Virus record (IMG/VR): IMGVR_UViG_2537561506_000022
Location: 1 to 37,331 of that record
Length of the DNA: 37,331 nt
From: a virus
Taxonomy: Duplodnaviria > Heunggongvirae > Uroviricota > Caudoviricetes
Direction: 5' to 3' (one strand)
The translations under genes were made by a program, and so were the position numbers. Below, one piece after another: positions 1,909-36,049 of the stretch; position 1 is the stretch's first letter, and the number at the start of each line of letters is the position of its first letter. Below the pieces are notes generated by a model that had not been told where the DNA came from, searched no databases, and worked only from the letters and a program-made list of their open reading frames with translations.

Positions 1909-2604
1909 ATGACAGCTACAAAAAGCACGTCCATTTTTTCTTTCGAATCCCAAGCCGATATACGAGTAATCGTCATTAATGGTGAGCCATGGTTTATCGC
2001 TTCAGATGTTTGTCGGGCTATAGGCATAGCAAACCATCGAGATGCTGTTCGAAAACTTGATGATGATGAGAAGGGCGTCGCTTCAACCGACACCCCTGGC
2101 GGTGAGCAAGAATCGATCATCATCTCCGAGTCAGGCCTCTACACACTGATCCTCCGCTGCCGCGACGCAGTGACACCAGGCACTATCCCCTACCGCTTTC
2201 GTAAATGGGTTACAGGTGAGGTTCTTCCTCAGATCCGCCGCACCGGAAGCTACATTAAAAACTCGCTCCCGCAGGAAGAACGCATAAAGATGCTTGCCGA
2301 CCAGGTAGCCAGCGCCACGGCGTCAGCAGTGATGCAGGCGATGAAGATAGAGAACAAAACCTACAGTGCCCCGCTGAAGCCCGGCTACCGCAGCCTGATT
2401 CATTCTCCGTCTGGTGTTCTCGGCCTGACTGAGAACTCACTGCTGATGAATCTGCTGAACCAGTTACAGGAAGACGGGCATGATGTATCGGGCGCAGCGG
2501 CGGAGCTGACCACCATGTTCTGCTACATCGTCGGTGTGAGCAAATGCCTGCGTGATATCCAGACCCACGCGGAGTACATCAACGACAAGGCAGGGTTCTT
2601 CTGA
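1909..2604 (+). CDS. Phage antirepressor, Bro-N N-terminal domain plus shared C-terminal domain
   Basis: 231-aa ORF; N-terminus FSFESQADIRVIVINGEPWFIASDVCRAIGI is a Bro-N signature; C-terminal ~80 aa identical to the C-termini of ORFs 3681..4619 and 35363..36049. Confidence 0.8.
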   Translation: MTATKSTSIFSFESQADIRVIVINGEPWFIASDVCRAIGIANHRDAVRKLDDDEKGVASTDTPGGEQESIIISESGLYTLILRCRDAVTPGTIPYRFRKWVTGEVLPQIRRTGSYIKNSLPQEERIKMLADQVASATASAVMQAMKIENKTYSAPLKPGYRSLIHSPSGVLGLTENSLLMNLLNQLQEDGHDVSGAAAELTTMFCYIVGVSKCLRDIQTHAEYINDKAGFF

Positions 2605-2627
2605 CGGCGGCGGCACAGGGACGTGCC
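2366..2627 (+). repeat. Copy A of ~260-bp near-identical repeat (antirepressor C-terminal coding segment plus ~25 bp 3' flank)
   Basis: Near-identical to 35807..36071 (direct) and to the reverse complement of 3658..3920 (inverted); only a handful of substitutions seen by eye. Confidence 0.85.
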
Positions 2628-2668
2628 TTTAAATAATTCTGTACAGATTGCAGGTGAATAGCTTACTA

Positions 2669-2683
2669 TTACCTCACGGGTGA
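2669..2683. promoter_or_regulatory. Palindrome site c TTACC-TCACG-GGTGA upstream of the cargo cassette
   Basis: Matches the 15-bp palindrome family; intergenic. Confidence 0.35.
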
Positions 2684-2720
2684 TCCATAGCGATTAGGCA
2701 CCGATACAGGAGGAGCCCAC

Positions 2721-2753
2721 ATGAGAAAATTTGACGAGTACGAAGGCGTTTAA
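2721..2753 (+). CDS. Possible 10-codon leader peptide ORF (MRKFDEYEGV)
   Basis: ATG 5 nt after a strong AGGAGGAG Shine-Dalgarno; followed at 2773..2794 by a terminator hairpin and then the membrane-protein gene; attenuator-like layout. Confidence 0.25.
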   Translation: MRKFDEYEGV

Positions 2754-2772
2754 CATTCGGATAGTTTAATGA

Positions 2773-2794
2773 CGGGGCCATTAGGCCCCGTTTT
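2773..2794 (+). terminator. Hairpin CGGGGCC-ATTA-GGCCCCG plus TTTT (possible attenuator/terminator)
   Basis: 7-bp GC-rich stem followed by a short T run, located between the mini-ORF and the RBS/GTG of ORF 2813. Confidence 0.4.
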
Positions 2795-2812
2795 CATGTC
2801 TGGAGACAGTTT

Positions 2813-33522: not shown

Positions 33523-33771
33523 ATGAAAGGTGCATTAGGTAAGAAGGAACTCCTGGCGGTGGTGCCACTGTCATGGAGCACTATCGACCGTATGGAGCGC
33601 GCAGGGGAATTTCCTAAACGCTGGTATATCACCGATAAACGCTGCGCATGGAACCGTGATGAAGTTGAGCGTTGGCTTGATGAACGTCAGGCAGCAAGCC
33701 CGGCAGAGTTCCAGGGTAAAAAACCTCCTGTTCAGCAACGTGTATATCGTCCCGTGAGCAACGCGGCATGA
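33523..33771 (+). CDS. AlpA-family regulator / excisionase-like protein
   Basis: 82 aa; LAVVPLSWSTIDRMERAGEFPKRWYITDKRCAWNRDEVERWLDER matches the AlpA-type HTH pattern. Confidence 0.65.
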   Translation: MKGALGKKELLAVVPLSWSTIDRMERAGEFPKRWYITDKRCAWNRDEVERWLDERQAASPAEFQGKKPPVQQRVYRPVSNAA

Positions 33772-33880
33772 GTGTGCTGCTAAGGCACTGGAGCAAATGG
33801 TCAGGATGGTACTTATTCCTGGCCTCTGTTTCTGCATGGCTTTATCTGCTGGCATTAATTTTCAGAGATGGTTGGATTAA

Positions 33881-34180
33881 GTGAGAAAGTTAAGCCGACT
33901 TGAAAAATATCACATGAACAAGGTTTCAATGCGCAGCCCTTCAAAGGTTGTTGCCGTTACTCCTGCGGCGATAGAGATCGAAAAACGCGCGATTGAAAGA
34001 GAGAAAAAAGGGCAGTTCCGCATTGCCGCCCACCTTTGGCTTCAGTGTATGGATGTTGCTTCTGGTGATGTTGAGCGTGCAAGGATCGCGGTTCGCAGGG
34101 ACCAATGTATCACAAAAGGTAACGGCCTTCGCCGTGGCGACTATAGCGGCATAGGATGTTGCGGGGTGGTTTATGACTAA
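33881..34180 (+). CDS. PerC-family-like transcriptional regulator (tentative)
   Basis: Start uncertain (GTG 33881, ATG 33914 or 33929); LWLQCMDVASGDVERARIAVRRDQC resembles the PerC pattern; stop overlaps the methyltransferase start. Confidence 0.4.
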   Translation: MRKLSRLEKYHMNKVSMRSPSKVVAVTPAAIEIEKRAIEREKKGQFRIAAHLWLQCMDVASGDVERARIAVRRDQCITKGNGLRRGDYSGIGCCGVVYD

Positions 34181-34823
34181 GAAATACACACTAATCTATG
34201 CAGATCCACCCTGGGTATACCGGGACAAAGCCGCAGATGGTAATCGCGGTGCCGGTTTTAAATATCCGGTTATGAGTGTGCTGGATATCTGCCGCCTTCC
34301 TGTGTGGGATTTGGCCGATGAAAACTGTCTGTTGGCCATGTGGTGGGTGCCAACACAACCACTCGAAGCACTAAAAGTTGTTGAAGCCTGGGGATTCCGT
34401 CTGATGACCATGAAGGGCTTCACGTGGATAAAATGTGGTAGTCGACAACCAGATAAACTGGTTATGGGTATGGGGCACATGACTCGCGCCAATAGTGAAG
34501 ATTGCCTGTTTGCGGTAAAGGGAAAACTACCTACGCGCATTAATGCAGGGATCGTTCAGTCATTTACCGCACCGCGGCTTGAGCATTCAAGAAAACCAGA
34601 TATCGTTCGTGAAAAACTTGTGCAATTGTTAGGCGATGTTTCTCGCATTGAACTGTTCGCCCGCCAGTCGTCTCATGGTTTCGATGTTTGGGGTAATCAG
34701 TGCGAAGACCCGGCAGTGCAACTACACCCTGGATACGCGTTGGATATTGGCGGATTAACAAATGCATTCAGCAATGCTCCGCTGTCACCAACAGACAACC
34801 AGGGGCGGGAGCGTGCAGCATGA
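34173..34823 (+). CDS. DNA N6-adenine methyltransferase (phage Dam-type, DPPW motif)
   Basis: 216 aa; LIYADPPWVY is the N6-adenine methyltransferase catalytic motif. Confidence 0.8.
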   Translation: MTKKYTLIYADPPWVYRDKAADGNRGAGFKYPVMSVLDICRLPVWDLADENCLLAMWWVPTQPLEALKVVEAWGFRLMTMKGFTWIKCGSRQPDKLVMGMGHMTRANSEDCLFAVKGKLPTRINAGIVQSFTAPRLEHSRKPDIVREKLVQLLGDVSRIELFARQSSHGFDVWGNQCEDPAVQLHPGYALDIGGLTNAFSNAPLSPTDNQGRERAA

Positions 34824-35068
34824 AGCAGATTATGGTTGCACACAACGGCGTCAGGTTTGAAGTCGTCATGGTTTTGACTAAGTACCGCAATGATGAGGTA
34901 TTGCAGAGAAAAGAAACTGTAACTTACCGTTATAAACACCGAAGTTCAGCTGTTAGAAGATTACGGAAGATTACGGAAGAGCTAAAAAATGATCCTCATC
35001 GTGTTATTGAGGTAAAAGGCAACCCATATAAAATCACAACTTCAGTGGAGCTAAGACATATGCAATAA
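34820..35068 (+). CDS. Small hypothetical protein (82 aa) containing a tandem 10-bp DNA repeat
   Basis: ATG overlapping the methyltransferase stop (ATGA); ttacggaaga occurs twice in tandem at 34961..34980; track ORF 34700..35068 is over-extended. Confidence 0.45.
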   Translation: MKQIMVAHNGVRFEVVMVLTKYRNDEVLQRKETVTYRYKHRSSAVRRLRKITEELKNDPHRVIEVKGNPYKITTSVELRHMQ

Positions 35069-35337
35069 AATCACGCCTGACGAATCGCGATTATCTCGCT
35101 ATTGGTATTGCAGAGATTGCTGGACTCAGTGGCGCATGATTTGACAATGCCGCCAGAGCTATCGCATACTGACCGCACTAGAACTTCAAAGCGGTCACCC
35201 GCACCCGATAGCTTTGCGGCTTTTTTATGCCTGCAATTTGGCATAGTCACATCCGTACAAAGGTCGGGTGGAGAGGCGTAATACAATACCCAAAAGGGGA
35301 ATATGCCCGGAGCGTCTTTGAAGGCTCTAGTTGACAC

Positions 35338-35360
35338 CCGATCACCAGCTACTAACTGGT
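35338..35360 (+). promoter_or_regulatory. Inverted repeat ATCACCAG-CTACTAA-CTGGTGAT just downstream of a TTGACA hexamer and about 30 nt upstream of the antirepressor start
   Basis: Perfect 8-bp arms; TTGACA at 35329..35334; related to the hairpin at 1851..1883. Confidence 0.4.
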
Positions 35361-35392
35361 GATTGCTAACTAAAACTTCAAAGGAGGTCATC

Positions 35393-36049
35393 ATGACCAG
35401 TCAACTCATCCCCGTATTCAACGGCACTATATCTAACGAAACAGCCCTACTTTGCAATGCCCGCGATCTGCACGCTTTTTTAGGTGTTAAAAAGGTGTTT
35501 GCAGCATGGATTACAAATCGCATTTCAGAATACGAATTCATTGAAAATCAAGACTATATTTTGCTTTCCAATTTGGGAAAGCAAACATCTGGTAGAGGCG
35601 GCCACAACCGCAAAGAGTACCACCTCACCCTCGATACAGCCAAAGAACTAGCAATGGTCGAGCGTAACGAAAAAGGTCGTCAGGTACGACGCTACTTCAT
35701 TGAATGCGAGAAACGTTTAAGACAACAAGAAACAAAAGTGGAGAAGGTCTTGTCAGGCTTCATGCCCGCCATTATGGAGGCGATCAAGCTGGAAGACAAA
35801 AAAGAATACAGCGCCCCACTGAAGCCCGGCTACCGCAGCCTGATTCATTCTCCGTCTGGTGTTCTCGGCCTGACGGAGAACTCACTGCTGATGAATCTGC
35901 TGAACCAGTTACAGGAAGACGGGCACGACGTATCGGGCGCGGCGGCGGAGCTGACCACCATGTTCTGCTACATCGTCGGTGTGAGCAAATGCCTGCGTGA
36001 TATCCAGACCCACGCGGAGTACATCAACGACAAGGCAGGGTTCTTCTGA
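35393..36049 (+). CDS. Phage antirepressor (KilA-N/Rha-type N-terminal region plus shared C-terminal domain)
   Basis: ATG with AAAGGAGG 5 nt upstream (track ORF starts at TTG 35363); C-terminal ~80 aa identical to the ORF 1909 and ORF 3681 C-termini. Confidence 0.75.

Follow-up and report, generated by a model that had tools for sequence, protein, structure and literature searches.

The DNA analysed here is a 37,331-nucleotide sequence of a tailed virus (Caudoviricetes), positions 1 to 37,331 of IMG/VR record IMGVR_UViG_2537561506_000022, and the whole stretch is referred to as the window. It holds three intact open reading frames (ORFs) of antirepressor type, genes A, B and C, whose products of 231, 312 and 218 amino acids begin with different domains and end in one and the same C-terminal module:

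1909 to 2604, plus strand: gene A, Bro-N domain (residues 17-107) and Ant-type module (residues 155-231, nucleotides 2371-2601); from Pfam and a phmmer search of the PDB.
3681 to 4619, minus strand: gene B, P22_AR_N domain (residues 12-121), a middle part and Ant-type module (residues 236-312, nucleotides 3684-3914); from Pfam and the PDB match 5D50_E.
35393 to 36049, plus strand: gene C, AntA domain (residues 22-92) and Ant-type module (nucleotides 35816-36046); from Pfam.

The shared C-terminal module

A repeat scan of the window recovers the common gene ends as one direct repeat of 279 nucleotides at 96% identity (2349-2627 and 35794-36072, in A and C) and two inverted repeats, of 270 nucleotides at 92% (2336-2605 and 3680-3949, in A and B) and of 235 nucleotides at 96% (3680-3914 and 35816-36050, in B and C). 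The direct repeats lie 33,445 bp apart, and the convergent inverted repeats of A and B are separated by 1,074 bp. At the protein level, the final 77 residues (PLKPGYRS...KAGFF) are 100% identical by MAFFT alignment and codon comparison. The 231 nucleotides that encode them, compared codon by codon, differ at 7 positions between A and B, 5 between A and C, and 10 between B and C, and all 12 variable codons are synonymous. Between A and B, identity is unbroken over module codons 66-15. Homology persists for about 22 nucleotides past the TGA stop codon (CGGCGGCACAGGGACGTGC) and then ends abruptly, and a weaker upstream extension (MPAIMEAIK...) is common to A and C.

The short stretch after the stop codon (2605-2627, 3658-3680 and 36050-36072) forms a small hairpin, GGCAC-AGGGAC-GTGCC, probably left over from the 3' flank of an ancestral small gene. 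In copy A only, the hairpin is followed by a T-rich run.

Upstream of the module the three proteins belong to different Pfam families: Bro-N in A (E=2.5e-21; 76.5 bits against a cutoff of 25.6), P22_AR_N in B (E=5.9e-45) and AntA in C (E=4.2e-26). Pairwise BLASTP of the N-terminal cores of A, B and C gave no significant similarity. Two PHROG families, phrog_245 and phrog_7940, each match both A and B, which hints at a remote relationship between Bro-N and P22_AR_N. A preliminary description of this DNA had proposed three antirepressors with a common, near-identical C-terminal end, two of them (A and C) as direct repeats about 33 kb apart. The repeat scan and the alignment bear this out, with 5-10 differences per 231 nucleotides. 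Its domain labels for A (Bro-N) and B (P22 Ant-like) also stand, whereas 'KilA-N/Rha-type' for C was imprecise, since Pfam identifies AntA.

Homology to the SPC32H antirepressor

The module is covered by no Pfam model and falls in phrog_450, a PHROG family of 88 amino acids annotated as being of unknown function. When compared with the PDB by phmmer, it matches chain E of entry 5D50, the 86-residue 'anti-repressor protein' of Salmonella phage SPC32H (E=3.4e-14), with module residues 1-75 aligned to chain residues 5-79; full-length B gives the same match over its residues 231-307. The Rep-Ant antirepression system of SPC32H was reportedly described by Kim and Ryu in 2013 and by Kim et al. in 2016, with PDB structures 5D50 and 5D4Z. 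According to secondary sources, the SPC32H Rep is a tetramer on DNA, and the small Ant, itself described as tetrameric, binds Rep and breaks up the tetramer. Both partners have counterparts in the window:

30585 to 31169, plus strand: Rep, the prophage repressor; phmmer match to PDB 5D50_A (SPC32H Rep) over its full length, E=4e-42.
1336 to 1593, plus strand: small ant, an antirepressor of 85 amino acids and orthologue of SPC32H Ant; from ORF translation and synteny.

Pfam shows only helix-turn-helix domains in Rep, and the S24 autocleavage peptidase domain was not found in it. The protein is 100% identical to the repressors of phages phiV10 and vB_EcoP_ZX5 (ZX5), and 98.5-100% identical at the amino acid level across the E. 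coli phages of the group. The small ant, absent from the genes listed in the preliminary description, is a fourth, diverged and unfused member of the module family. Its product is 39-43% identical to the module, and 18 alignment positions are invariant, also when the stand-alone homologues are included.

The occurrence of the module follows that of Rep. In a phage collection, 34 records with the Ant domain and 37 with Rep show matching organism breakdowns, the Rep set having three extra records, and the identities of module and Rep move together (100/100% in E. coli, 79/78% in Tyrion and 54.5/44.8% in Klebsiella). Among 5,426 complete E. coli genomes, the set used for all counts of module, Rep, small ant and recombination junctions, Rep is carried by 537, the small ant by 529 and the module by 469. 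When 1.84 billion representative proteins were searched with a profile, just 62 relatives of the module were returned, either unfused or placed behind Bro-N, AntA, Phage_pRha or ORF6N domains, to which the window adds P22_AR_N. A homologue search with the 80-residue module returned short proteins only; the second Ant lineage, to which the module belongs, also exists as stand-alone proteins of 95 amino acids, in Klebsiella and Raoultella. These begin with MPAIMEAIK, a start that is kept internally in C, so that C arose by the fusion of a whole small gene.

Gene B provides a natural domain exchange. Over residues 1-201 it matches the Ant of CUS-3, a P22-like phage, at about 97% identity; from there CUS-3 Ant continues into P22_AR_C while B continues into the module, and Pfam does not find P22_AR_C in B. 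The same N-terminal body, in a Rep-type phage, thus has its C-terminal domain exchanged for the module. From the homology, the co-occurrence and this exchange we infer that the module binds Rep, which is presumed to be the common target of all four Ant-domain proteins. The proposal of several input domains wired to one output domain is in this respect plausible, given an output domain homologous to SPC32H Ant and a cognate Rep in the window; as inputs, the sequence itself reveals four cis-regulatory circuits rather than the N-terminal domains. Functional information comes from phage ZX5, whose ORF4 is 99.1% identical to protein A. Overexpression of ORF4 reduced lysogen counts from 1e9 to 1e6 (about 1000-fold) and lowered transcription of the repressor gene (PMC9782041).

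The module may instead be mainly an oligomerisation (tetramerisation) domain, in which case any antirepression would be N-terminal and only the small Ant would bind Rep. A tetrameric SPC32H Ant would fit this, as would the AlphaFold2 monomer of the module, a mediocre model (predicted local distance difference test, pLDDT, of 67) that is all-helical with a long C-terminal helix; the N-terminal families are, moreover, annotated as 'antirepressor' in a thousand phages that have no module. Self-association by itself would leave unexplained why the module occurs in Rep-bearing phages only, why its divergence parallels that of Rep, and why it substitutes for P22_AR_C when CUS-3-like N-terminal 200 residues enter a Rep-type phage. 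In addition, five protein alleles among 104 copies (see below) suit a fixed partner, the conserved Rep, better than self-association alone, and we consider this explanation unlikely.

A different target has also to be weighed, for example the Rep of co-resident heteroimmune epsilon15-like prophages, with the fused genes serving cross-talk or anti-immunity. The E. coli phages of the group have essentially one Rep allele, however, so that no separate target presents itself; the module is equally invariant, and the effect of ZX5 ORF4 was on its own phage, with a Rep identical to that of the window. These observations make a foreign target quite improbable, even though the module is well diverged from the resident small Ant (39-43% identity), some E. 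coli genomes contain two Rep copies, and anti-immunity functions have precedents in P22 immI and P1 immI.

Sequence variation of the module

The near-identity of the three gene ends had been attributed to recent gene conversion or domain shuffling. To place it in a wider context, 79 related viral contigs were compared, giving 83 sequences including the window and 104 module copies. These comprise 88 DNA alleles and 5 protein alleles, and 48 of the 52 polymorphic sites are synonymous. Copies at the same locus differ on average by 8.36 nucleotides and copies at different loci by 8.38 (permutation P=0.49), no site among the 104 copies is fixed for different bases in different N-terminal classes, and four gametes are present in 42% of informative site pairs. 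Because divergence is equal within and between loci, protein alleles are few and four-gamete pairs are frequent, the module is regarded as a population-wide recombining cassette under strong purifying selection and not as the product of recent in-genome homogenisation.

Had intragenomic gene conversion homogenised the three 3' ends shortly before sampling, this would account for a DNA identity of 92-96% beside no detectable similarity upstream and for the unbroken stretch shared by A and B, and inverted copies do recombine in related prophages. The paralogues of one genome should then resemble each other more closely than copies drawn from the population, but the 8.36 and 8.38 mean differences show no such excess. 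The pairs in the window (5, 7 and 10 differences) are typical of the population, and the nearest copies elsewhere (1, 4 and 5 differences) are as close as, or closer than, the paralogues. The 2-4% divergence of the module also equals that of Rep orthologues, whose alleles are 95-99% identical. Recent conversion is therefore very unlikely, and of the two processes first proposed it is domain shuffling of antirepressor-type genes that stands. This shuffling is ongoing, as judged from the varied content of the slot that gene A occupies behind the isrK RNA (described below), which in related loci is filled by AntA or by several Bro-N variants. A nucleotide-level constraint from an overlapping gene or RNA was also considered as a cause of the DNA identity and was rejected, as synonymous polymorphism in the population affects 46-48 of the 77 codons.

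Recombination between copies and the cargo slot

It had further been suggested that recombination between A and C could delete most of the prophage interior. The two copies share a perfectly identical stretch of 133 bp, which makes a 33-kb deletion mechanistically possible; a query for the chimeric A::int junction, at a coverage of at least 80%, found no deletion derivative in the 5,426 E. coli genomes. The inverted copies A and B, by comparison, enclose a region of variable content:

2813 to 3607, plus strand: variable cargo between A and B, comprising a DUF4760 protein (2813-3352; Pfam) and a small membrane-anchored protein (3374-3607).

In related prophages, the cargo between the convergent module genes measures about 1.1-1.3 kb, and in phage TL-2011b it is a YafO-family toxin (32319-33272 of contig L001). 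Its orientation is opposite in contigs L013 (7740-9478) and L023 (6869-8606), and again in L078 and L061 (10010-11560), each pair of prophages being otherwise collinear, and the points at which orientation switches lie inside the repeated 3' ends. The presence of both orientations indicates inversion by recombination between inverted module copies. The region resembles a moron slot set between inverted repeats; PADLOC gave no defence match for the cargo genes or for protein A.

Regulatory elements of the four genes

An Rfam scan of the window yielded five RNAs above their gathering scores, four of which directly precede Ant-type genes. The stand-alone small ant is associated with a different kind of element:

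1299 to 1314, strand not applicable: LexA box CTGTATATTTATACAG overlapping the small ant promoter; exact CTGT-N8-ACAG match with an AT-rich core.

The box lies 22 nucleotides upstream of the small ant ATG (1336). The gene is divergent from the tailspike gene, in the same position as the ant gene of SPC32H, which is under LexA control (reviewed in PMC7380047, PMC9638917). Since the CTGT-N8-ACAG pattern is not enriched in the window (11 matches against 12.7 expected at one mismatch or fewer), the case for this box rests on its position and on synteny with SPC32H ant. The stand-alone format of about 86 amino acids under LexA control is seen in the 1336-1593 copy only; the fusion genes A, B and C have no LexA box in their vicinity and show control of RNA or Arc type.

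Gene A starts 157 nucleotides downstream of the first of two RNA elements:

1676 to 1751, plus strand: isrK-family small RNA (sRNA) with its own terminator; Rfam RF01394, 77.9 bits against a gathering score of 50.
1776 to 1861, plus strand: C4-type antisense RNA; Rfam RF01695, 77.7 bits against a gathering score of 45.

The loop of the second C4 hairpin, CCUUUUAG (1819-1826), is exposed in the minimum free energy fold and is complementary to CUAAAAGG (1893-1900) in the ribosome-binding site of gene A. In a comparison of 86 related loci, four covarying versions of the loop and its target were seen: CCUUUUAG/CUAAAAGG, CCACUUAG/CUAAGUGG, CCUUUGUAG/CUACAAAGG and CCUACUAG/CUAGUAG. In IsrK, the C4 target sequence recurs in the single-stranded linker (1717-1724), and this linker bears the matching target-like sequence in each of the four versions, which suggests that IsrK may titrate the C4 loop as a target mimic. 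As RNAduplex energies between IsrK and the gene A leader were no better than those of shuffles, the relation of IsrK to C4 rests on a short covarying motif and not on a long duplex. In Gifsy-1, IsrK activates translation of the antirepressor AnrP in trans through the nucleotide-conserved 'orf45' leader (PMC4825925). The three-way covariation at the A slot fits this action in trans, and suggests that the Gifsy-1 'orf45' leader is itself a C4-family RNA.

Relatives of the Bro-N part of A occur across many phyla, in 1,006 phage records, but the match extends over the module in only 18 of these. In phiV10 the orthologue of gene A (19551-20230) is frameshifted within the module and annotated as two genes, p22 and p23.

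The surroundings of gene B resemble the immI region of phage P22:

4621 to 4688, plus strand: sar antisense RNA, opposite the arc-ant junction; Rfam RF00262, 44.8 bits against a gathering score of 43.
4692 to 4856, minus strand: Arc-like small gene preceding B, 54 amino acids; ORF with a RefSeq orthologue named 'Arc family DNA-binding protein'.
4950 to 5411, plus strand: Mnt-like ribbon-helix-helix regulator, divergent from arc-ant; Pfam Arc, E=1.2e-14, residues 12-56.

In related loci, sar was found upstream of all class-B genes (10/10). A promoter-like sequence, TTGACA-17-GACAAT (4895-4923), stands ahead of the Arc-like gene, whose 54-residue product did not reach E<=0.01 with the Pfam Arc model. 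The Mnt-like regulator has 153 amino acids, about 95 of which form an uncharacterised C-terminal part beyond the ribbon-helix-helix domain that P22 Mnt does not have. The DNA of the N-terminal and middle parts of B (4016-4393) shares about 91% identity with the ant genes of many Stx1- and Stx2-converting lambdoid phages and 94% with CUS-3 ant. The identity to lambdoid ant indicates recent exchange between epsilon15-like podoviral and lambdoid prophages of pathogenic E. coli.

Gene C is the last gene of the early-left block and convergent with int, an arrangement also found in E. coli F1005 at guaA. Its ATG sits behind a good Shine-Dalgarno sequence and is preceded by one RNA element:

35262 to 35351, plus strand: sRNA-Xcc1-family RNA; Rfam RF02221, 62.9 bits against a gathering score of 53.

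This element is C4-like in form, with a long outer stem around two hairpins. Its 8-nucleotide loop, CUUUGAAG (35316-35323), has its complement in CUUCAAAG (35376-35383) directly beside the gene C Shine-Dalgarno sequence, and its duplex with the gene C leader is stronger than 99.7% of shuffles. The specificity of the loop is unlike that of the C4 RNA preceding A. The element therefore looks like a second, orthogonal antisense brake, as predicted from these pairings, and not like a free-standing sRNA.

The prophage and its relatives

The window matches, at the DNA level, E. coli phages TL-2011b, phiV10 and vB_EcoP_ZX5 as well as hundreds of E. coli prophages, and it has the gene order of epsilon15-like podoviruses (Uetakevirus). 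It is most of a phiV10/TL-2011b-type prophage of E. coli. The start of the window cuts the tailspike gene, so that the prophage extends further left; the other side is closed by the integrase:

36081 to 37331, minus strand: integrase, at the int-proximal prophage end; ORF, and annotation of identical DNA in NZ_OY754353.1.

In E. coli F1005, which has identical DNA here, the integrase end adjoins guaA, the attachment site in relatives. The terminase and portal genes are separated by a tRNA gene (21452-21525), as they are in SPC32H; the annotation of the F1005 prophage gives it as tRNA-Arg.

Relatives differ in how many antirepressor slots are occupied. The small ant is the only one in epsilon15 and SPC32H; it is accompanied by C in F1005, by A in phiV10 and ZX5, and by A and B in TL-2011b, and the window has all four. 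The slots are filled independently in different phages. The F1005 prophage, with C and neither A nor B, was considered as a possible recombinant of the A/C type and ruled out, as its small-ant locus has the plain epsilon15 layout.

A model of converging antirepressors

Antirepressors are the route by which many prophages enter lytic growth, among them prophages of pathogenic E. coli and Salmonella. For most multi-domain 'Ant/Bro' proteins, we know of no account of how labour is divided among the parts. The reading that we consider probable for the window is that its Ant-domain genes, each with its own brake, converge on one Rep, and that the module is a shared recombining cassette. Lysogeny would be held by a non-cleavable repressor of the SPC32H Rep type, and the shared 77-residue module would be paralogous to SPC32H Ant. 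The SOS input would come from the ancestral stand-alone ant with its LexA box, while the three accessory genes would represent a second Ant lineage fused behind interchangeable Bro-N, P22_AR_N or AntA domains. Gene A would be blocked at its ribosome-binding site by the C4-type antisense RNA, with IsrK mimicking that target; gene B would be governed by a unit like P22 immI, consisting of arc-ant, mnt and sar; and gene C would be blocked by the second, orthogonal C4-like RNA. On release of any one brake, an Ant domain would inactivate the same Rep. The module and the conserved upstream RNA elements may at the same time act as homology anchors for the swapping of N-terminal domains.

Several observations weigh against this reading. 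The ZX5 assay used the full-length protein with a glutathione S-transferase (GST) tag and did not assign the activity to the module (PMC9782041). The frameshift in phiV10 indicates that the fused accessory genes are dispensable for a viable temperate phage. A Foldseek search of the PDB with the mediocre module model gave nothing at E<=0.001 and did not recover 5D50, and the module is only 39-43% identical to the small Ant. The co-occurrence and co-divergence with Rep could merely mirror shared phage ancestry. Finally, the prophage as a multi-input OR gate is a picture that we infer from anatomy alone. The fuller version, in which four orthogonal signals act on one repressor, the module is a recombination anchor, IsrK is a sponge for C4, and a three-site specificity code has at least four versions, is put forward tentatively, as somewhat less than an even chance.

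The components are all of known kinds, namely SPC32H Ant/Rep, P22 immI, P1 C4, Gifsy IsrK and Bro-type shuffling. In the literature searched, no description appears to exist that recognises the C-terminal module, joined to five N-terminal families, as an Ant domain of the SPC32H type, or that reports up to four Ant domains per prophage under orthogonal controls. By tying the module to a solved antirepressor-repressor complex, the analysis makes a vague 'Ant/Bro' annotation testable: the module alone is predicted to bind Rep, the N-terminal domains to be exchangeable, and each gene to answer a different signal. The prophage would then offer a natural example of several regulatory channels meeting at one lysogeny switch, and of a short cassette driving mosaic evolution. 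The two or three orthogonal antisense-RNA specificities of the A slot could find use as parts, or could mark phage immunity groups. If the module does not bind Rep, the arrangement would amount to ordinary phage domain shuffling.

Comparison with known systems

The closest likeness is to the Rep-Ant system of SPC32H, with which the window shares a homologous repressor (E=4e-42), the antirepressor domain (E=3e-14), a syntenic small ant and a LexA box. SPC32H and epsilon15, however, have a single unfused Ant of 86 amino acids, whereas the window carries a second Ant lineage three times, fused and not LexA-controlled. Gene B resembles P22 immI in its P22_AR_N domain, the Arc-like gene upstream, the divergent Mnt-like ribbon-helix-helix gene and sar; it differs in that P22_AR_C is replaced by the SPC32H-type module and that the Mnt-like protein has 153 amino acids.

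In phage P1, the C4 antisense RNA has a role in controlling ant (PMC8201110). The immI regions of P1 and P7 are like gene A in having a C4-family RNA directly upstream, a loop complementary to the ribosome-binding site, and specificity variants. Unlike them, the window shows no KilAC or ANT Pfam match in A or C and no icd-like ORF overlapping the start of A, and a single prophage has two of its genes guarded by orthogonal C4-like RNAs (C4 and sRNA-Xcc1). The isrK-orf45-anrP region of Gifsy-1 (PMC4825925) is also similar to gene A, with isrK and a leaky terminator, a nucleotide-conserved leader and an antirepressor-like gene. In the window, by contrast, the counterpart of 'orf45' can be recognised as a C4-family RNA, no AUGA-coupled ORF is seen, and the downstream protein ends in a module predicted to be Rep-specific.

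The shuffling of Bro-N/KilA-N-type domains in phage regulators is said to have been described by Iyer, Koonin and Aravind in 2002. The window conforms to this pattern in that N-terminal families (Bro-N, P22_AR_N, ORF6N, Rha and AntA) are combined with alternative C-terminal domains, and it departs from it in its C-terminal partner, which has no Pfam model of its own and is tied to a solved antirepressor-repressor complex.

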